The notes beneath the pieces are model-generated. The model saw nothing but the letters and a program-made list of their open reading frames with translations, searched no databases and was not told the DNA's origin. A DNA stretch of 64,000 nt from Patescibacteria group bacterium (GTDB lineage Bacteria > Patescibacteriota > SICC01). The stretch spans positions 268,280-332,279 of the forward strand of contig JBBDXB010000006.1 in the NCBI GenBank assembly GCA_040902515.1, in the 5' to 3' direction. This document shows, in pieces, positions 7,096 through 42,662 of this stretch (position 1 is the first letter of the stretch; each line of letters starts with the position of its first letter). The translations under genes and the position numbers were made by a program.

Positions 7096-7124
7096 TTGAC
7101 ATTTTGCCTCAATAAAGGTATAAT
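7096..7124 (+). promoter_or_regulatory. Consensus sigma-70-type promoter (TTGACA-17-TATAAT)
   Basis: TTGACA at 7096-7101, 17-nt spacer, TATAAT at 7119-7124, in an AT-rich intergenic patch upstream of the ATG at 7147. Confidence 0.6.
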
Positions 7125-7146
7125 TCTTCAATTAATCCTTTTAGGC

Positions 7147-7965
7147 ATGAAAGCTCCTGACAGTCAGGGCCCCGATACACCCCTCTCGGAAACCGAGCAA
7201 TCTGAGCCATCGGCTATTGAGCGCTGGGAGGAACAATCATGGAGATCCGCCCGAGGAGCGGAGTTTACGGCAGTTGATTCGGGTCCCGGACATGACTTGG
7301 CCCGGAGCCTCGGTAACCACTACCGTGACTTGGCACACCGATTCGGTGCTATCGCGCGAGAAGGTGCCCCCGAAGATCGTGACAGCGCCCAGAATAGTTA
7401 CGAAGAAATATCGGGGGTCTCTCGAAGGTATCTTGCCGCCTCGGAGGCCGACGAGATACCGAGTGATCTGCAGGAAGAAATGGAACAGTATTGTGCGGAC
7501 CTAAACGAGGTACTCGACGGACTGGAGGAAGGAAAGTCCGAACGCTGGGATCGACCGGACAATCCGCGTCGCGAAGAAATGCGAAAATCGCTCATGGAAC
7601 TGGTTAGGATGCGCGACGCAAAGCGGAACGCCGCTCCCGAAAACCGATCCTCTGAGGTACCTGAAGATGAGAAGCGGACTCGCATGGCTGTAGCACATTC
7701 AGCGGATAGGATTAAGCATGACTTAATGCTTCGAATACCGCTCGATAGACTTGACTTACAGGCTGGCGACCCACGCTGGAAAACGCTCGCCGACGGTCTT
7801 GGCGAGATCCAGCGAGATCTTCGGAAGGACAGTCGATTGCCCGACGAGCGGAACCCTCAGTATGCCAAGCGTCTCAAGGAACTCCTGGGCAGTATGGCAC
7901 CGGATCAAGACTCCCGGAATGCTATCGACAAGGAGCTTGAGAGCGGTTCCAGGGGCCGCAAATAA
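7147..7965 (+). CDS. Acidic hypothetical protein (Glu/Asp/Arg-rich, no recognisable domain)
   Basis: The track ORF 7096..7965 overlaps the promoter, so the start is set to the first ATG after the -10 (MKAPDSQGPDT...). Codon usage is consistent with the genome. Confidence 0.5.
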   Translation: MKAPDSQGPDTPLSETEQSEPSAIERWEEQSWRSARGAEFTAVDSGPGHDLARSLGNHYRDLAHRFGAIAREGAPEDRDSAQNSYEEISGVSRRYLAASEADEIPSDLQEEMEQYCADLNEVLDGLEEGKSERWDRPDNPRREEMRKSLMELVRMRDAKRNAAPENRSSEVPEDEKRTRMAVAHSADRIKHDLMLRIPLDRLDLQAGDPRWKTLADGLGEIQRDLRKDSRLPDERNPQYAKRLKELLGSMAPDQDSRNAIDKELESGSRGRK

Positions 7966-8019
7966 TCCAACTAGGGTATCGCCCCTCGGGCATACGGGTC
8001 GCCTGAGCGTTTTATCTTG

Positions 8020-8106
8020 CGGAGAGGGAGGGATTCGAACCCCCGAGACCCTTGCGGGCCTGCCGGTTTTCAAGACCGGTGCCTTCAACCACTCGGCCAC
8101 CTCTCC
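8020..8106 (-). tRNA. tRNA-Ser (anticodon TGA)
   Basis: Minus-strand cloverleaf: acceptor GGAGAGG/CCTCTCC, anticodon stem CCGGT/ACCGG with loop CTTGAAA, 18-nt variable arm, T-loop TTCGAAT. 87 nt, no encoded CCA. Confidence 0.88.
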
Positions 8107-10013: not shown

Positions 10014-10039
10014 CATTGGGGCGACGCGCGGCGGTCCAT

Positions 10040-10059
10040 GGCTACAAGGCACCGTGGGA
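10040..10059. repeat. Copy 1 of a 20-nt direct repeat GGCTACAAGGCACCGTGGGA
   Basis: Exact 20-mer also found at 10730-10749, with an imperfectly similar 5' flank (gcgGCGGtCC / gcaGCGGcCC). It lies 27 nt downstream of tRNA-Arg(CCG). Confidence 0.7.
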
Positions 10060-10078
10060 ATGCTGATAACCGCTTCGG

Positions 10079-10107
10079 TTGACAAACTTACTGTGGTTGG
10101 TAGGATG
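10079..10107 (+). promoter_or_regulatory. Putative promoter TTGACA-16-TAGGAT upstream of a 33-codon ORF
   Basis: TTGACA at 10079-10084 and TAGGAT about 16 nt downstream. The downstream transcript carries SD AAGGAGGA before the ATG at 10200. Confidence 0.4.
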
Positions 10108-10199
10108 CTCTTGTCCTGAGTGACTGCAAGCCGTTTCACGGCTGAAGTACGAGCCGCCTGGCTTGTAGCTCATTCCCATCTCATCCAAGGAGGATCCAG

Positions 10200-10301
10200 A
10201 TGCAGAAGATCACCCGGCTCCGCGGCCACCCGGCCACCGAGCCCACTGAGCCCACCGCGTTCTGCGACCACCACGGCACCGGCGACCTGACGGGCACGTA
10301 G
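10200..10301 (+). CDS. Micro-ORF, 33 aa (MQKITRLRGHPATEPTEPTAFCDHHGTGDLTGT)
   Basis: ATG preceded by AAGGAGGA with 6-nt spacing and a promoter-like element upstream. Below the track's size cutoff. No homology inferable. Confidence 0.3.
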   Translation: MQKITRLRGHPATEPTEPTAFCDHHGTGDLTGT

Positions 10302-10545
10302 CCCGCCGCCGCGCCTCCACGTGTCACGTATGCCCCGAACAATCAGCTGCGTGACAGGATGAGATGAGGAAACTCAAGCAGAGAGTTGCATGACGACCCC
10401 CGTCGCCCACCAACTCTCTGCCTCATCCTGCCTTAAGAACGGGACTTTGTTATCATGCGAACATGATCAGCCGAAGCAATGCGACGTTCTTTTGCTTCGC
10501 TCCGCCCCGCGGTGGCTGATTAGAGGTAGTTACTAAGCACTAATC

Positions 10546-10567
10546 GCCACCGGCCGGTGGCTTTTTT
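10546..10567 (+). terminator. Intrinsic terminator/attenuator hairpin (GCCACCGGCCGGTGGC followed by T6)
   Basis: Perfect 16-nt GC palindrome at 10546-10561 followed by tttttt. An SD (AAAGGAGG) and the ATG at 10583 follow within 16 nt. An upstream segment, ccgcggtggc at about 10507-10516, could pair with the 5' arm as an antiterminator. Confidence 0.55.
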
Positions 10568-10582
10568 GATGAAAGGAGGAAC

Positions 10583-10759
10583 ATGTGTGAGCAAGAAAGG
10601 TCTCTCGAAGAGGTGCTGGGACCCGAGAGCGAATGCAGCTCCGAAAGCGGTGATGAAGAAACCTGCGCGGAAACCAAATCGGCGGAGCTTCCCGTGGAGT
10701 ATCCTGCCGTGCAGCGGCCCCGGACGCCCGGCTACAAGGCACCGTGGGACTATCGGTAG
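10583..10759 (+). CDS. Small acidic Cys-containing ORF, 58 aa (MCEQERSLEEVLGPESECSSESGDEETCAETKSAELPVEYPAVQRPRTPGYKAPWDYR)
   Basis: ATG 7 nt after SD AAAGGAGG. Its 3' end contains copy 2 of the 20-nt repeat. Stop lies 53 nt before tRNA-Ser(CGA). Confidence 0.35.
   Translation: MCEQERSLEEVLGPESECSSESGDEETCAETKSAELPVEYPAVQRPRTPGYKAPWDYR
10730..10749. repeat. Copy 2 of the 20-nt direct repeat GGCTACAAGGCACCGTGGGA
   Basis: Exact match to 10040-10059, 62 nt upstream of tRNA-Ser(CGA). In this copy the repeat encodes ...PGYKAPWD; copy 1 would encode ...HGYKAPWEC*. Confidence 0.7.
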
Positions 10760-10811
10760 CAGGAGGCTGCAGCACTTTGATACCGGCGGATTTACAATAG
10801 ACTGGAGATAC

Positions 10812-10898
10812 GGAGGAGTGCCGGAGCGGTCGAACGGGGCGGTCTCGAAAACCGTTAGGCCCGCAAGGGTCTCGGGGGTTCGAATCCCTCCTCCTCCG
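10812..10898 (+). tRNA. tRNA-Ser (anticodon CGA)
   Basis: 87-nt cloverleaf GGAGGAG...CTCCTCCG. Anticodon stem GCGGT/ACCGT with loop CTCGAAA. Long variable arm. The 3' 35 nt are identical to tRNA-Ser(TGA). Confidence 0.88.
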
Positions 10899-10954
10899 CA
10901 GGATAAAAGCGTCCAGGGCAACCCATGTGCTGTGGGATGGTAGGCTAATAGACC

Positions 10955-11563
10955 ATGAATAAGAAGCCTTCGATCGAAGGGGACCCGGCCACCTTCCCTG
11001 ATTCAACGGAAAGGGTTGATGAAGCAGGCGAATCGGTTACTGCGCTGGTGCCGAGAATCCTGGAAGGTCTGCAAATCACTCGATACCGCCTCAGGCGGTA
11101 TGTTCCGAAAACAGGTGATGAGTTTGATGAAGAAAAGGCGTTTAGCGACGTTTCCGGCTTCCGAGCTAATGTTGGAGCAATCGGACGAAGCCACGACCCT
11201 CGGGCCCTGGTATCTCTTTCGTCCAAGGTGGAGGTCGTGGGAGATACTCGGCATTTACCATTACTGGATTTCTCAAACACACGAATACCTGATTTGGATA
11301 TCTCTGATGTAGAAGAGGTGTTAATAGGGCTTGGTCAAAGGCGGGGTTTCATTCTTCATTCGGGAAGATGCTTCCATTACTACGGCCTTGATCTCCTGCG
11401 TGAGTCTGAATGGAGCGAATTGATGATGCAGTCCGCGGAACAGCCGGCGATAGGAGAACGGTACATTCAGCGTCAATTGTCTCGCGGCGCCTCCTACTTG
11501 CGGCAAAATACCGGCCCCACCAGACCCTGTTTACCTTATGTAGTTAAGGTATTGGAAGGCTGA
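10955..11563 (+). CDS. Hypothetical protein, compositionally atypical (lower GC)
   Basis: 202-aa ORF between two tRNA-Ser genes. GC is visibly lower (about 50%) than the surrounding ~63%, with A/T-ending codons. No recognisable motif. Confidence 0.5.
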   Translation: MNKKPSIEGDPATFPDSTERVDEAGESVTALVPRILEGLQITRYRLRRYVPKTGDEFDEEKAFSDVSGFRANVGAIGRSHDPRALVSLSSKVEVVGDTRHLPLLDFSNTRIPDLDISDVEEVLIGLGQRRGFILHSGRCFHYYGLDLLRESEWSELMMQSAEQPAIGERYIQRQLSRGASYLRQNTGPTRPCLPYVVKVLEG

Positions 11564-11726
11564 TAGGAGGAGCGGGCGGCCAAATTGCGTAATCTATCCA
11601 CCTGTATTCCAGAATCCGACCTCTCAGAAACCCCTTGGAAGCCTTACAATAAAACCCGTCGGGGGTTCCTGACCCGACTGCTCCGCAGGTATCCTTAAGG
11701 TGTTCTCTTTGGAGAACGCTTAACAC

Positions 11727-11816
11727 GGAGGGGTACCCAAGTGGCTTAAGGGGCGGGATTGCTAATCCTGTAGGTCGGCATTAGCCGGCGCGAGAGTTCG
11801 AATCTCTCCCCCTCCG
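11727..11816 (+). tRNA. tRNA-Ser (anticodon GCT)
   Basis: 90-nt cloverleaf GGAGGGG...CCCCTCCG. Anticodon stem CGGGA/TCCTG with loop TTGCTAA. 21-nt variable arm. T-loop TTCGAAT. Confidence 0.88.
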
Positions 11817-11840
11817 CAGTGTCTGGAGCATATGAAGCAA

Positions 11841-11870
11841 GGAACCCGCCGATCGGCGGGTTCCTTCGTT
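11841..11870. terminator. Hairpin terminator between tRNA-Ser(GCT) and the convergent secreted-protein gene
   Basis: ggaacccgcc-gatc-ggcgggttcc perfect stem followed by ttcgtt. Confidence 0.45.
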
Positions 11871-13189: not shown

Positions 13190-14215
13190 CTAATATTCGA
13201 CCGCTAGCTGTAATTTCCGGCGTGCCCGTTGCATGGCATTATCAACGGCCTTGTGATCGATCCCCAGCACTTCGCCGATTTCCGTATAGTTATGCCCGAC
13301 GTAATGCCCTATGATCACCCCCGACTCCACGTCGGTGAGGCGGGAGCGGGCTGCCCCGAATACATCCCTCACCAAACGCCTCTGTTCGATTATCTCATCC
13401 GGCTCCAGCACCTTCGAATCCGCGAGCACGTCCGACAAGGGTATTTCCTCCCCGTCCGAGTAGGTACCGACGGGTTGGCGGAACGACCTGGCCTCGTTGA
13501 CCGGCAAGTGCTTGTCCCGCGTGGCGGTCTTCACGGCGGTGATGACCTGACGATACATAGCCAGCTCGGCGAATGTCACGAAGCCCGCTTTTCCCGAACG
13601 CCTGTAGTCCCGAACGGCCTTCAACAGCCCGTAGCGGGCCTCCTGAGCGATGTCGTCCTTGCTGAGACCGGGGGCGAAATACGTATGTGCCAACCGGTCG
13701 ACAGATGCCTGCATCCGTTCGGCCAGTGCTTCGAACGCATCCTCGTTTCCTTCGAGCGCCCGCGTTACGAGCATCTCGTTACGCCGGTTGTCCGCAGAAA
13801 ACCCGGCGTCCGGTACGGCCGACTTTCCGGGAGGAGCCTGGGTGGCTTCCTGCCAATGGCGCTCCGCCAAGTCTGCCAGCCTCGACACGTACCCTTCCGC
13901 CGCACCGCTTTCCGCCGCTTCAAGAACCATGTTCGGAGCGGCTTCGAGCACTTCCTGCTTGCTGACCGTCTCCTTTTTCACATGGTAATAGCCGACGATC
14001 AGCGGGACGCCGATCGCCGTGCGTACCAATTCGTTCGCGGCTTCCGGACTGCCCGCCCGGTATTCCCGGAGCGCGGCCTCGATATCCTCGTGTTCCAGCG
14101 CACCGGTCATGGACTTCCTGAGGAAGTCGCCCAGCGCCTTGTCAAAGAACGGCGCTGCCTTCTCGGGAATGAAAACCGGCTCCCCCTGCTCGACTTGGTC
14201 TGCTTGTGCTTTCAT
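13190..14215 (-). CDS. Sigma-70 family RNA polymerase sigma factor (group-3-like) with ~110-aa N-terminal extension
   Basis: Region 2 (DIAQEARYGLLKAVRDYRRSGKAGFVTFAELAMYRQV) and region 4 HTH (YTEIGEVLGIDHKAVDNAMQRARRKLQ). Start set at MKAQADQ (14215). The track ORF extends to 14536 in a low-complexity frame. Confidence 0.65.
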   Translation of the reverse strand: MKAQADQVEQGEPVFIPEKAAPFFDKALGDFLRKSMTGALEHEDIEAALREYRAGSPEAANELVRTAIGVPLIVGYYHVKKETVSKQEVLEAAPNMVLEAAESGAAEGYVSRLADLAERHWQEATQAPPGKSAVPDAGFSADNRRNEMLVTRALEGNEDAFEALAERMQASVDRLAHTYFAPGLSKDDIAQEARYGLLKAVRDYRRSGKAGFVTFAELAMYRQVITAVKTATRDKHLPVNEARSFRQPVGTYSDGEEIPLSDVLADSKVLEPDEIIEQRRLVRDVFGAARSRLTDVESGVIIGHYVGHNYTEIGEVLGIDHKAVDNAMQRARRKLQLAVEY

Positions 14216-14318
14216 GATCCGTAACGGATGACTGGTTATTATGACACACCTTTCCCGGATGTTCAGGCGTGCCGGATCGTGCGCGTTTCGAACCCCTAAG
14301 CGGTACACTGGTAAGGTC

Positions 14319-15647
14319 ATGCGAGCCGAAACAGAGATCTTCCGGGCATACGATATCCGGGGAATCGTCCCGGACCAGCTGGACGAGGCCGGTGCCGAGC
14401 AGGTCGGTCGCGCCTTTGCGGCGTACTTGCAGCCGAAGCAGGTCGTGGTCGGTCGCGACGTCCGCACGACCGGAGCGGCATTCCAAGCGGCGGTCATCAA
14501 AGGCCTGACCGCTTCCGGCGTGGACGTGCTCGACATCGGCCGGGTCTCGACGGACCAGTACTACTTCGCCTGCAGCCGGCACGCCGCTCCCGGCATCATG
14601 GTCACCGCTTCGCACAATCCGCCCGAGTACAACGGCTTCAAGATGGTACGCAAGATGCCGGAACTGGTTCCCGTGAAGGAGTTCCGGTCATGGGTACTCG
14701 AGAAGCGGTACGAGGATGCCGCAAAGCCCGGCGCCGTCACGACCGAGGACACGCTGGACGCCTTCGTGGGCCGAATGCTGGAGCTCATTCCTCCGGCCCG
14801 GCTGAAACCGCTGAAAGTCGTGGTCGACACCTCGAGCGGCTCCCAGGGTGCCGCCTGGGAAAAACTTCGGGAACGTCTGCCGCTTGAGATCGTCCCGCTG
14901 TTCTGGGAGCCGGACGGAACCTTCCCCGGACATCCGAACGACGTGATCCAGCCGGAAGCCAAGGAGCCGCTGCGGAAGAAGGTGCTCGAAGAGAAAGCGG
15001 ACCTCGGCCTGATCTTCGACCCCGACGGCGACCGCTGCCTGGCGGTCGATGACGAAGGCCGGGACATTCCCGGCGACTACCTGACCGCGCTCCTCGCCAA
15101 GACGATGCTCAAGCACGCCCCCGCCAGTACGGTCGTATACGACATCCGAGCCAGCGACGCCGTCCCCGACGCCATCCGGGAAGCCGGCGGCACGCCGCTG
15201 GCCTGGAAGGTCGGGCATACGCACATCAAGCCGAAGATGATGGAACACGACGCCGTCTTCGGCGGCGAAGTCTCCGGTCACTTTTATTTCCGGGACTTCG
15301 GCTACGCCGACTGCGGCATCCTGGCCGGACTGGTCATCCTCGAGTACGTGAGCGGCCTCCCCGGTCCGCTCAGCGACGAACGGAAGCGCCTGGAGTCGAG
15401 CTACTCTCTGAGCGGTGAACTCAACTCGAAGGTCGCCGATGTGCCGGCCGTCCTGGCCCGGATCAAGGAACGGTACGCCGACGGCAAAATCGACGAGCTG
15501 GACGGCATCGCCGTCCGCTACCCCGACTGGCACTTCGTCGTGCGGCCGTCCAATACGGAGCCGGTGATCCGCCTGACGCTCGAAGCGGCATCCCGGAAGC
15601 TCATGGAGCGGAAGCGGGACGAGGTCCTTGCCCTGATCCGGCAATGA
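14319..15647 (+). CDS. Phosphomannomutase/phosphoglucomutase
   Basis: Active-site TASHNPPEYNGFK, Mg-binding FDPDGDR, and characteristic C-terminal domain. Start set at MRAETEIFRAYDIRG. Confidence 0.85.
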   Translation: MRAETEIFRAYDIRGIVPDQLDEAGAEQVGRAFAAYLQPKQVVVGRDVRTTGAAFQAAVIKGLTASGVDVLDIGRVSTDQYYFACSRHAAPGIMVTASHNPPEYNGFKMVRKMPELVPVKEFRSWVLEKRYEDAAKPGAVTTEDTLDAFVGRMLELIPPARLKPLKVVVDTSSGSQGAAWEKLRERLPLEIVPLFWEPDGTFPGHPNDVIQPEAKEPLRKKVLEEKADLGLIFDPDGDRCLAVDDEGRDIPGDYLTALLAKTMLKHAPASTVVYDIRASDAVPDAIREAGGTPLAWKVGHTHIKPKMMEHDAVFGGEVSGHFYFRDFGYADCGILAGLVILEYVSGLPGPLSDERKRLESSYSLSGELNSKVADVPAVLARIKERYADGKIDELDGIAVRYPDWHFVVRPSNTEPVIRLTLEAASRKLMERKRDEVLALIRQ

Positions 15648-39592: not shown

Positions 39593-39732
39593 GCCGTCAC
39601 CGTCAGGCGCTTGCGTCCCTTGGCCCGTCGGCGCGCCAGGATCTGCTGGCCGTCCCGGGTCTGCATGCGTTTGCGGAACCCGTGTTTGCGGGCCCGGCGG
39701 CGCTTCGAGGGCTGGTATGTTCGCTTAACCAC
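39589..39732 (-). CDS. rpmH: 50S ribosomal protein L34
   Basis: [44 protein letters not shown]. The only in-frame start at the canonical position is GTG (complement of 39730-39732). Confidence 0.8.
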
Positions 39733-39865
39733 CCGTCCAGTGTACCGCATTTCGTCGCGCGAGTGACCGTCCCGCCGACCCGTTTCCGACGGGATCTGGG
39801 GATGTTTCTGCCGGAGTTGGGGATGATCGGGTGGGATTGTGTATGCTGTGGATAGCTCTGCTATC
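39733..39865. other. oriC-associated DnaA-box cluster (rpmH-dnaA intergenic region)
   Basis: TGTGGATAG at 39847-39855 (8/9 to TGTGGATAA), plus degenerate boxes TGGGGATGA, TGGGGATGT and TGTGTATGC. Confidence 0.5.
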
Positions 39866-41269
39866 ATGTCGGAGCACAACTTGGAAAACGTATTGATGGA
39901 CCCCAAAAAAATTTGGCAGGCCGTTCTTGGTGAGCTTCAGGTGACGATCTCGCGCCCGAATTTCTCCACATGGCTGAAGCACACGGAGCTCCTGGAGGTC
40001 CAGGGCGACACCGCCCGGATCCTCGTACCGAGCGCGTTCGCCAAGGAATGGCTGAAGCGGAAGTTCAGCGACGATATCCTTTCCGCGGTCACCAAGCACG
40101 CTCCCGAAGTCTCGAAGCTCGAGTACAAGATCGGCCGGCCGGAGGCCGGAGCGCCCGTCGCGAATCCCGACGCGGAAACGTCCGGGTCCGATTCGGACGA
40201 AGCCTCCGAACCCGCCCCGACGGCGCGTCCGTCCCGGAGCGGCAGCAAGCCGGCGGCGCCCCAGGTCCGCTGCACGTTCGAGAACTTCATCGTCTCCGGC
40301 TCCAACCAGCTTGCCCACGCCGCCGCCAAGGCCGTGGCGAAGAATCCCGGCACCACGTACAACCCGCTCTTCATCTACGGGCCGGTGGGGCTCGGCAAGA
40401 CCCACCTGATCCGCGCGATCGGCAGCGAGATCCGCCGCACCAGCGACAAGGAGGTCCTCTACGTCACCGCGGAGAAGTTCACCAACGAGGTGATCTCCTC
40501 GATCCAGGCCAACAAGACCGCCCGGCTCAAGAACAAGTACCGCAAGGTGGACGTGCTGATGATCGACGATATCCAGTTCATGGCCGGCAAGGTCCAGACC
40601 CAGGAGGAGTTCTTCCACACGTTCAACGCGCTCAAGGACGCCGACAAGCAGATCGTCCTCACCTCCGACCGGCCGCCGAAGGCGATCGCGACGCTCGAGG
40701 AGCGGCTGATGAGCCGCCTGACCATGGGCATGATCGCCGACCTCGGGCCGCCCGAGCTCGAGACCCGGATCGCGATCCTCAAGACGAAGGCCCAGGAACG
40801 GCGTTACGACGTGTCCGACGACGTGCTGGAGTTCATCGCCAAGGCGTTCCAGCGGAACATCCGCGAGCTGGAGGGGGCGCTGATCCGCGTGGCCGCCAAT
40901 GCCGAGCTGATCGGTGAGCCGCTGTCGATCGAACTGACCGAACGGGTGCTCGGTTCCATGCTCGCCTCGCGCCAACACCGGAAGATCTCGAGCGACCAGA
41001 TCCTCGAATCGGTCGCGAAGTTCTACGACATCAGCGTCGATGACCTTAAGGGCCCCAAGCGGGTGAAGGAGATCGTCCGGCCGCGGCAGATGGTGATGTA
41101 CCTGCTCCGCCAGGAGTCGAACCTGTCCTACCCGAAGATCGGCCGCGAGCTCGGCAACCGCGACCATACGACGGTGATTCACGCCGTCGATAAGATCGGG
41201 CATGAGACGGAAATCAACGAGCCGCTCCGCCATGAGCTCAACCTGATCAAGGAGCGCTTGTACGGCTAA
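39866..41269 (+). CDS. dnaA: Chromosomal replication initiator protein DnaA
   Basis: AAA+ Walker [11 protein letters not shown], DnaA signature, and C-terminal DNA-binding helix. Start set at MSEHNL (39866) because the track start at 39839 would sit on a DnaA box. The Met at 39896 (MDPKKIWQ) is an equally plausible start. Confidence 0.9.
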
Positions 41270-41570
41270 CTCTCCGCCGTTTGTGCCTACATCTGTGGAC
41301 GAAGTTGTGGAAAACTATGGGTATGTCCTGGGTATGGTCCGGGTGCGGCGGGTTCGTCGCTGTGTATCAATTAGGTGTTTTAGGCGGCCATTACGCGGAA
41401 CGTCCGTGTTCTCTACAGGTGGTCCCCTGGGGCTGGGGACGTAGATTGGTTATGATAAAGACACTTTCTAGACGTTTCCCCGTTTCCCCAGGCCCTACTC
41501 CAACTACCAGTTATCTTTAATTGAAATCTACCCGCATTGTGTATGAACTAATCCCCATGGAATACTCCCG
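41270..41570. other. Probable oriC core (dnaA-dnaN intergenic region): DnaA boxes plus an AT-rich unwinding element
   Basis: TGTGGACGA, TGTGGAAAA, TGTGTATCA, TGTGTATGA and TTATCTTTA boxes, plus an AT-rich stretch (cagttatctttaattgaaatctacc) immediately upstream of dnaN. Confidence 0.55.
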
Positions 41571-42662
41571 ATGAAACTCGTCACTACCCAGGATCAATTA
41601 GCCAAAGCCCTCTCATCCGTCAGCCGGATGATCAATCCGCGGGGAACCCTCTCGGTGCTTGCCAATGTGTTGCTTGAGACTAAGGATGGACGGCTTCGGG
41701 TCTCCGCGACGAACCTCGAACTCGGCATCGATTACTCGATCGGCGCGAAGATCGAGAAAGAGGGGTCACTAACGGTGCCGGCGCGTCTCCTGACCGATTA
41801 CGTGAACAATCTTGGTGAGGAAAAGCTTGAGCTGTCCTCCAAGGAACAGACGTTGGTGATCAAGAGCACCGGCGCCCAGTCGACGATCAACGGTATTCCC
41901 GCGTCAGAATTCCCGGTGATTCCGGAAGTCAGCGAAGGCAAATCGGTGACCGTTTCCGCGGCGGGAATCAAGGACATCATCCAGAAGGTCGCGATCGCGG
42001 CGTCGAACGACGAGACACGGCCGATCCTTTCCGGCGCCCTGTTCCACTTCAAGGATCCGGAGCTCAAGGTGGCGGCTACGGACAGCTACCGGCTCGCGGA
42101 ACTCTCGATGCGATTCGAGAAGTCCGCGCTGGAAGAGCTCAAGGTGGTCGTGCCGGCCAAGGCGCTGGCCGAGCTGGGGCGCATCGTCGAGGCCGAAGAG
42201 GTGACGATCCGCACCGCCGAGAACCAGGTGCAGTTCGAGACCGAGCACGTGCGGCTGGTGAGCCGGCTGCTCGAAGGCGAGTTCCCGAAGTACGACCAGA
42301 TCATTCCCGAAAAGCTCACCACCAAGGCGACGGTAAAGCGCGGCGACCTGATGAACAAGATCCGGATCGCGGCGCTGTTCTCGGAAGATGCCGGATTCGG
42401 CGTGAAGCTGACTTTCGCGGCTCCGGGCAAGCTCGAGATAGCCTCGGAAACCGCCCAAGTGGGAGACTCGCACAGCTCGCTGTCCGGCAAGGTGTCCGGC
42501 CCGGAGAACACCGTCGCGTTCAACGCGCGGTATCTCCTGGACGGCCTGACCGCGGTCGGCGGCGAAGAGGTGACGATCGAGAGCGACGGGAAGCTGAACC
42601 CGTGCGTGATCCGCGGCAAGGCCAAGGATTACCTGTACGTCGTGATGCCGCTGCGGGTGTGA
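41571..42662 (+). CDS. dnaN: DNA polymerase III beta sliding clamp
   Basis: 363 aa with a three-domain beta-clamp pattern (...LLETKDGRLRVSATNLEL...). Follows dnaA. Confidence 0.9.
   Translation: MKLVTTQDQLAKALSSVSRMINPRGTLSVLANVLLETKDGRLRVSATNLELGIDYSIGAKIEKEGSLTVPARLLTDYVNNLGEEKLELSSKEQTLVIKSTGAQSTINGIPASEFPVIPEVSEGKSVTVSAAGIKDIIQKVAIAASNDETRPILSGALFHFKDPELKVAATDSYRLAELSMRFEKSALEELKVVVPAKALAELGRIVEAEEVTIRTAENQVQFETEHVRLVSRLLEGEFPKYDQIIPEKLTTKATVKRGDLMNKIRIAALFSEDAGFGVKLTFAAPGKLEIASETAQVGDSHSSLSGKVSGPENTVAFNARYLLDGLTAVGGEEVTIESDGKLNPCVIRGKAKDYLYVVMPLRV

Follow-up and report, generated by a model that had tools for sequence, protein, structure and literature searches.

Islands in tRNA and transfer-messenger RNA (tmRNA) genes are formed by integrase-mediated insertion at the 3′ end of the tRNA gene, with a repeat at the far boundary, and the slot adjacent to the tRNA is usually held by the integrase. 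The second point of comparison for the locus described here is the catalytic core of the archaeo-eukaryotic primases (AEPs), for which four motifs have been defined, namely motif I (hhhDhD/E), motif II (sxH), motif III (hD/E) and motif IV (Rh), and in which mutations of the motif I acids abolish the activity of PolpTN2 (PMC5862659). Pfam holds a family named AEP-like (PF24387, ‘Archaeo-eukaryotic primase 1D-like’), on which our literature searches found no paper; they also returned nothing relevant on AEP-like proteins with defence islands, on Mom with primases or on primase-like proteins with Shosta. Here we describe a PF24387 gene at positions 10955–11563 of a 64,000-nt stretch from a Patescibacteria group bacterium (GCA_040902515.1, contig JBBDXB010000006.1, positions 268,280 to 332,279 of the forward strand), the whole of which is called the window. 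The gene is real and foreign, its product has a predicted AEP fold, an insertion scar lies beside it, and relatives of it are found in islands. We consider it likely that it is a horizontally acquired AEP-like gene, the sole cargo of a ~787-bp insertion at tRNA-Ser(CGA), and that it encodes a non-canonical enzyme, perhaps with a role in genetic conflict. Both the Pfam-catalogued family and integration at tRNA genes are known, and the locus is an example of gene transfer, not a new kind of system. It is a well-bounded transfer in Patescibacteria, a group with few mapped mobile elements and integration sites, and it provides the first known context map for PF24387, a widespread minimal AEP-fold family with a degenerate metal-binding motif.

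A low-GC gene inserted behind tRNA-Ser(CGA)

The open reading frame (ORF) begins with ATG, comprises 202 codons and lies on the + strand between tRNA-Ser(CGA) (10812–10899, +) and tRNA-Ser(GCT) (11727–11817, +), as located by ARAGORN and Rfam, in a cluster of five tRNA genes whose other members are Ser-TGA, Arg-GCG and Arg-CCG. The Rfam tRNA score of tRNA-Ser(CGA) is 52.7 bits, and the sub-threshold Rfam matches to ‘sX4’ and to a plastid untranslated region (UTR) are mere similarity to tRNA-Ser. The original prediction had placed a 202-codon ORF with about 50% guanine plus cytosine (GC) and many A- or T-ending codons between the two tRNA-Ser genes, in a background of about 63% GC, and this was borne out; of its two spacers, that of 163 nt downstream stands and that of 57 nt upstream measures 55 nt. 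The GC content of the ORF is 0.512 versus 0.632 for the window (z = −3.0 relative to 52 long ORFs) and lies within the lowest 0.2% among all 609-nt stretches of the window. The GC3 and codon-adaptation checks proposed with that prediction were also run: GC at third codon positions (GC3) is 0.50 versus a mean of 0.765 (z = −2.3), an index of the codon adaptation index (CAI) type, referred to 40 GC3-rich ORFs of the window, is 0.382 versus 0.701 ± 0.072 (z = −4.4), and A- or T-ending codons make up 49.8% of the ORF.

The insertion is delimited proximally by the 3′ end of tRNA-Ser(CGA), which is left intact and forms a boundary like the left attachment site (attL), and distally by a decayed copy of that end. 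The reference copy of the direct repeat spans 29 nt from the T-arm to the 3′ end (10873–10901, +; CGGGGGTTCGAATCCCTCCTCCTCCGCAG), and its degenerate counterpart, an attR-like scar, lies at 11660–11688 (+; CGGGGGTTCCTGACCCGACTGCTCCGCAG) and matches at 22/29 positions. Between them follow a 55-nt leader from the tRNA to the start codon (10900–10954, +), the AEP-like gene of 202 amino acids (aa; 10955–11563, +) and a non-coding tail (11564–11659, +). The insertion thus measures ~787 bp, and the AEP-like ORF is its only gene. The 29-nt repeat family consists of the 3′ ends of tRNA-Ser(CGA) and tRNA-Ser(GCT) and the non-tRNA copy at 11660–11688. When the spacer was shuffled 20,000 times with its dinucleotides kept, a 22/29 match was never attained, and in the whole 64 kb a match of at least 20/29 is given only by the three true tRNA-Ser genes and by this remnant, whose similarity to the tRNA breaks off at the 5′ edge of the T-stem. 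The locus therefore resembles the tRNA islands described above in its position at a tRNA 3′ end, in the intact tRNA, in the distal direct repeat running from T-arm to 3′ end, in its atypical composition and in its differing occupancy between genomes. The main differences are that the insertion is only ~787 bp long with one gene and holds no integrase or recombinase, and that the copy in the closest relative, described below, has no repeat.

The scan of the leader that separates tRNA-Ser(CGA) from the ORF showed nothing resembling a promoter or a terminator. Since 55 nt separate the two and no such signal follows the tRNA, the ORF is probably co-transcribed with it. Downstream, a perfect 14+14-nt palindrome (AAGGAACCCGCCGA/TCGGCGGGTTCCTT, 11839–11866), shared with a convergent 200-aa gene, probably acts as a terminator in both directions and would end the tRNA/AEP transcription unit.

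A diverged allele at a different tRNA-Ser in the sister genome

The one close relative available (GCA_964476895.1, locus L001, hereafter the sister genome) has the same neighbourhood, running from DnaG through the Na/Ca exchanger and the tRNA cluster to the 200-aa protein, the sigma factor and PGM. The flanks are 88–94% identical at the nucleotide level, versus 69% for the AEP-like gene. Positions 10786–10900 are 100% identical to the sister genome (blastn) and homology ends there; neither blastn nor alignment gave a homologue of the non-coding tail. The AEP-like gene of the sister genome begins 54 nt after tRNA-Ser(GCT), not after tRNA-Ser(CGA). In the window the site after tRNA-Ser(GCT) is empty, the junction reading CCGCAGTGTCTGGAGCATATGA and then AGCAAGG..., whereas in the sister genome it is occupied by an insert of ~670 bp made up of leader and ORF, which ends 4 nt past the stop codon; the palindrome of the window is conserved there, immediately behind that stop codon. 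The two leaders (55 nt in the window, 54 nt in the sister genome) are homologous from ‘GCGTCC’ (~10909) onward.

The two AEP-like proteins share 64% aa identity. By the Nei–Gojobori method, the proportion of synonymous differences (pS) between the genes is 0.77, which is saturated, that of nonsynonymous differences (pN) is 0.225 and pN/pS is 0.29, whereas the eight flanking gene pairs have a synonymous divergence (dS) of 0.18–0.29 and a nonsynonymous divergence (dN) of 0.009–0.048. The saturated pS, compared with the dS of the flanks, means that the alleles are far older than the split of the genomes, and the pN/pS means that the gene is under purifying selection. Since the sister genome has its anciently diverged allele after tRNA-Ser(GCT), the neighbour of tRNA-Ser(CGA), the two lineages, as read from the aligned loci, have acquired or replaced the AEP-like gene independently. 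The check in a sister genome that had been suggested thus found a homologue, which is a xenologue at a different site and with saturated divergence, not an orthologue. An att remnant shared between the two genomes was also sought upstream of tRNA-Ser(GCT) in the sister genome; the match there is only ~16/31, at chance level, and this candidate was rejected.

The slot behind tRNA-Ser(CGA) in the sister genome (L001 9044–9855) is ~800 bp long and encodes a 95-aa Sigma70_r4-only protein (E = 9e-15) and, by eye, a putative XRE-type helix-turn-helix (HTH) protein; it is a different cargo in the same inter-tRNA slot. Between tRNA-Arg(CCG) and tRNA-Ser(CGA), moreover, blocks are swapped between window positions 10022–10587 and L001 8211–8898, with 10022–10432 corresponding to L001 8470–8898 and 10464–10587 to L001 8211–8332, and from this swapped order the whole tRNA cluster appears to be a rearrangement hotspot.

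Family membership and predicted fold

The original prediction described the protein as an orphan with no recognisable motif, and this part did not hold. Residues 81–186 match PF24387 with E = 9.6e-17 and 61.5 bits, passing the gathering threshold (cut-off 27), and the precomputed Pfam label agrees; the protein is a direct member with no difference at the family level and retains every residue that is invariant in the family. An exhaustive HMMER search gave 647 family representatives at 50% identity, nearly all of 180–260 aa, which have the C-terminal ~120 residues in common and range over Patescibacteria, Acidobacteriota, Actinomycetota and others. The relatives retrieved carry the same Pfam label without any other domain and are called hypothetical in every source, and the window protein too is annotated "hypothetical protein" in its Patescibacteria metagenome-assembled genome. 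Scans of the window protein against NCBIfam, PHROGs and PADLOC gave zero matches, and searches of PDB chains, whether with the sequence alone or with a profile of 42 sequences, yielded chance matches only. The conserved core consists of S90, H100-x-P102-x-x-D105-F106 and G131, followed by S136-G137-R138-x-x-H141-x-Y143-G144, W153, L182-R183 and P191/P194. The window protein belongs to a subclade of short (~180–205 aa), Patescibacteria-type members with the signature DFSN...SGRCFHYYG...EIGxxY, in which the Asp of the family's xDxRY is Gly. The pattern used for the genome loci, SGRS[YF]H[YF]YG, excluded this SGRC subclade.

An AlphaFold model from a 43-sequence alignment (pLDDT 86.7, pTM 0.83) was compared with known structures. 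The top 10 Foldseek matches in the PDB are all AEPs; the best is the RSF1010 RepB′ primase domain (3H25; E = 8.7e-5, TM 0.57/0.60, 180 columns), and the others include S-2L PrimPol (6ZP9), archaeal PriS, human PRIM1, HP0184 and LigD-Pol. The matches among the viral models of BFVD are likewise all AEP primase domains, at 6–14% identity, and include RepB-type and primase-helicase proteins. Because the structural matches in both collections are all AEPs, the assignment of the modelled protein to the AEP catalytic-core fold (an RRM-like palm with a flanking sheet) is solid. Given the pN/pS of 0.29, the PF24387 match, the 647 relatives and this confident fold, the ORF at 10955–11563 can be taken as a genuine protein-coding gene.

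The active site departs from the canonical one. Motif I reads L-P-L-L-D105-F-S107 and has a single acid where two are called for; the residue two positions after D105 varies throughout the family (S/R/N/K/H/A/D/E/T/Q/F), leaving one conserved acid only. Motif II is present as S136-G137-R138-C139-F140-H141, and H141 is invariant in alignments of 52, 42 and 43 sequences. The sole candidate for motif III is the xDxRY Asp, in whose place the window subclade has Gly. In addition, L182-R183 is invariant, lies on a short strand (181–183) near the C-terminus and fits the pattern of motif IV, which makes R183 a candidate motif IV Arg (cf. RepB′ R145 and PolpTN2 R231). With one acid in motif I and a subclade lacking the candidate motif III Asp, conventional two-metal primase-polymerase activity appears unlikely for the window protein.

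Relatives in islands and the link to tRNA genes

Two relatives lie in textbook tRNA/tmRNA islands. In Acidobacterium sp. S8 (L031), a 63-bp repeat of the 3′ part of tRNA-Ser(GCT), 98% identical, delimits a 2.3-kb island with a truncated tyrosine integrase beside the tRNA and a truncated AEP-like gene. At L045, a ~5-kb island lies in the tmRNA (ssrA) gene, between the 3′ part of that gene and a repeat of it (34 bp with 100% and a further 91 bp with 88% identity), and contains Mom-like, 396-aa and AEP-like genes and two more ORFs. Moreover, a large serine recombinase adjoins the AEP-like operon at L032. At L119 the gene starts at most 12 nt after tRNA-Glu, and a gene for a type IV secretion system (T4SS) coupling protein lies 1.7 kb downstream; a distant member (L065) starts ~21 nt after tRNA-Ser(GGA) with a strong Shine-Dalgarno sequence (AGGAGGTGA). 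No direct repeat bounding the L065 or the L119 copy was found. As a separate observation, a 40-nt tandem duplication (93% identity) overlaps the 5′ end of tRNA-Thr at L039 (4578–4657) and may be another integration scar; it lies ~1 kb away from the metagenomic gene that is most closely related to that of the window.

Furthermore, over 84 loci the GC content of the gene differs from its flanks in both directions, falling below them in GC-rich hosts and above them in GC-poor ones. The close relatives of the window gene have 34–38% GC, and for this reason the alleles of 51–55% GC in a lineage of 63% GC look like partly ameliorated imports; the window and sister alleles would probably have come from lower-GC Patescibacteria.

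In the window subclade, six of eight loci have a tRNA within 800 nt, versus a background of 8–9.5% (P ~1e-5), or five of seven if the window and the sister genome are counted as one locus (P ~1e-4), and three of eight start at most 55 nt after a tRNA on the same strand (P ~3e-7). The neighbouring tRNAs are Ser, Glu, Ala and Thr, and since they are of several types the association concerns tRNA genes as a class and is not specific to serine. A subclade member at L120 (4001–4546) is an exception to this tRNA-proximal pattern: it starts 19 nt after rnc, with no tRNA within 4 kb, in an operon that otherwise consists of housekeeping genes (NusB, Nudix, RNase III, AEP-like, SMC, S16, KhpA, TrmD). 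Adjacency to tRNA-Ser was also considered as a rule for the whole family and was rejected, most loci having no tRNA nearby (31 of 35 from genomes and ~67 of 80 from metagenomes).

Genomic neighbours of the family

Neighbour clustering over 37 loci found no universal partner; the conserved sets are lineage-specific. In six to seven Actinomycetota loci of at least five genera (L025, L026, L028, L029, L032, L035 and L036), the AEP-like gene adjoins genes for a ThsA-like SIR2-STALD protein (PADLOC ThsA, E = 9e-68), a ShosA-like DprA protein (E = 2e-53), a ShosT-like phosphoribosyltransferase (PRTase), a Nudix hydrolase and an HTH-DUF5919 regulator, in varying orders. These partners resemble components of Thoeris (ThsA) and Shosta/PsyrTA. 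The differences are that the AEP-like protein has no PADLOC match, that a TIR (ThsB-like) partner was sought in the actinobacterial loci and none was found, and that no such genes lie near the window ORF. The Actinomycetota cluster may be an undescribed multi-gene defence arrangement. In seven to eight loci of Acidobacteriota and similar bacteria (L004, L005, L006, L007, L019, L024, L038 and L045), a same-strand triad consists of a Mom-family gene (PF25680), a gene for a ~350–396-aa membrane protein, whose membrane segment is C-terminal and which has no Pfam match, and the AEP-like gene; the triad of L045 is the one inside the tmRNA island. In addition, a ParE toxin is encoded near the AEP-like gene at L122. 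Many other loci have no defence genes nearby and have housekeeping neighbours, for example between rnc and smc at L120. The linkage to defence genes may be functional or may reflect a shared island only. The recurrence of ThsA-like, Shosta-like and Mom-like partners, together with the tRNA/tmRNA islands, makes PF24387 a candidate family for work on defence and mobile elements.

Origin and possible role of the inserted gene

The view of the ORF as horizontally acquired cargo gained support from its composition, from the att-like repeat, from the saturated divergence to the sister allele and from the islands of its relatives. The original prediction had named ordinary composition together with orthologues in all relatives as the result that would speak for abandoning this view, and what was found is an outlying composition and a xenologue. 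An insertion bounded by the 3′ end of tRNA-Ser(CGA) and a decayed 29-nt copy of it is the usual footprint of tRNA integration. Because the insertion lacks a recombinase, we assume either an island that has undergone strong reduction or a mini-cassette, the latter moved in trans or else by recombination that used the conserved tRNA-Ser sequence. The gene would be transcribed with the tRNA, and its message probably released by tRNA 3′ processing. As for its role, which is the weakest step, the likeliest candidate is a nucleotide-binding or nucleotidyl-transferring enzyme in conflict with phages or mobile elements, a guess made because the nucleotide-binding His and the invariant Arg that fits motif IV are kept, because defence-type neighbours occur in other phyla and because relatives lie in mobile islands.

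Several results weigh against this explanation, some of them against the insertion and others against the role. The distal repeat (11660–11688) is only 76% identical, there is no integrase or other mobility gene within the 787 bp, and co-transcription is deduced from spacing only. The copy in the sister genome has no flanking direct repeat and resembles a clean indel of ~670 bp lying no more than 16 nt from the tRNA, and ~85% of the 115 family loci have no tRNA within 3–4 kb. Moreover, no defence genes are found near the window ORF, whose neighbours are tRNAs, the Na/Ca exchanger, the sigma factor and PGM, and the conflict role is drawn purely by guilt by association in other phyla. In PADLOC-DB v2, no family matches the window protein at E ≤1, and the same was found for an actinobacterial member; a scan of viral contigs and PHROGs gave no relatives of the family.

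An alternative, which we hold to be unlikely yet worth weighing, is that the gene encodes a minimal primase of a mobile genetic element, working like RepB′ in priming the complementary strand of an element that has been transferred or excised, and that the window copy is the remnant of a larger integrative or mobilisable element. The protein resembles RSF1010 RepB′, whose catalytic domain is the best structural match of the model, and the PrimPol-PV1 supergroup in its fold over ~180 positions, in its small single-domain core and in its carriage by mobile elements, and it has an invariant Arg plus a hydrophobic residue that fits the motif IV pattern of that supergroup (PMC5862659). It likewise resembles the PrimPols (S-2L 6ZP9 and TthPrimPol) in the AEP fold, in the SG-x-x-x-H motif II with the diagnostic His and in the association with mobile elements. 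The RepB-type and primase-helicase proteins among the viral matches, the motif II His and the invariant Arg fitting motif IV, the T4SS coupling protein at L119 and the integrase remnant at L031 all suit such a primase. However, the identity to RepB′ is 11%, and motif I has one acid, not two. The second acid is absent family-wide, the subclade has Gly for the candidate motif III Asp, and PolpTN2 is inactive after mutation of its motif I acids (PMC5862659). The canonical DxD/E of the PrimPols is absent, and the protein also differs from them in having no fused or adjacent helicase, PriCT or zinc finger and no viral relatives, and from RepB′ and PrimPol-PV1 in having neither a helix bundle or other DNA-recognition domain nor a replicon context. 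Among the 115 loci, no recurrent helicase, Rep, relaxase, PriCT or zinc-finger partner was found, and defence-type neighbours are far commoner than replication or transfer neighbours.

Two bolder proposals, which even taken together we regard as distinctly improbable, give the protein a different task. According to the first, the AEP-like protein promotes the integrase-free insertion of its own ~0.7–0.8-kb unit beside tRNA genes, much as a free-standing homing gene would, the unit being expressed from the tRNA promoter and the unusual His/Asp/His/Arg/Ser/Tyr set being invariant. The two independent insertions in the window and in the sister genome do consist of leader and ORF only, and each is no more than 16 nt from where a tRNA-Ser ends, the L065 and L119 copies start 12–21 nt after a tRNA, the subclade is strongly tRNA-proximal, and the gene sits in the very slot that is typical for an integrase. 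Yet we know of no precedent for an AEP recombinase, and conventional recombinases are present at L031 and L032; most family loci have no nearby tRNA, the L120 copy lies inside a housekeeping operon, and the tRNAs concerned (Ser, Glu, Ala and Thr) offer no single target sequence. According to the second, the wider family makes a nucleotide-derived signal for the accompanying SLOG/SIR2 effectors in Actinomycetota and so replaces the missing TIR partner. Either a signal synthase or a self-inserting gene would be significant if true, and the latter would represent a new class of single-gene tRNA-homing element on a primase fold.

It is still less probable that the protein acts on tRNA itself, in the repair, tailing or modification of the tRNA-Ser 3′ end, with its position reflecting a functional linkage. 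Terminal-transferase activity exists in some AEPs and would suit such an enzyme, as would the three independent cases in which the gene lies directly 3′ of Ser(CGA), Ser(GCT) or Ser(GGA) and is probably co-transcribed; furthermore, tRNA-Ser accounts for five of the ~19 tRNAs close to other loci of the family. Against this, ~85% of loci are without a tRNA, subclade members lie beside tRNA-Glu, Ala and Thr, at other loci the conserved partners are genes of defence type or for DNA modification, and att-like repeats and integrase remnants account for the tRNA linkage without any functional tie. Finally, that the ORF is spurious, or a vertically inherited, fast-evolving resident with low GC from local constraint, is hardly credible: the sole close relative does have a homologue in the same tRNA cluster, but fast protein evolution cannot yield a pS of 0.77 against the neighbours' dS of 0.18–0.29 (with pN/pS at 0.29), the position differs between the genomes, the att-like scar is present, and a spurious ORF is contradicted by the Pfam match, the 647 relatives and the confident fold.

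Other features of the window

A second low-GC outlier is a 289-aa ORF at 7096–7965 (+), with a GC of 0.548, a GC3 of 0.545 and a CAI-like index of 0.41, which ends 54 nt before the third tRNA-Ser, tRNA-Ser(TGA) (8019–8106, −). It has no Pfam match, and its counterpart in the sister genome shows an aa identity of 0.90 and a dS of 0.24, a normal divergence, from which this ORF may have been acquired earlier, next to a different tRNA-Ser. The sole other 609-nt stretch of the window with a GC of at most 0.53 lies at ~41261–41870; it begins in the gap between the ORFs 39725–41233 and 41571–42662 and extends into the latter. In addition, the sigma-70-like gene is 448 aa long in the window (13190–14536, −) versus 341 aa in the sister genome (11969–12994), and the extra N-terminal stretch of the window version may have arisen from the choice of start codon when ORFs were called mechanically.

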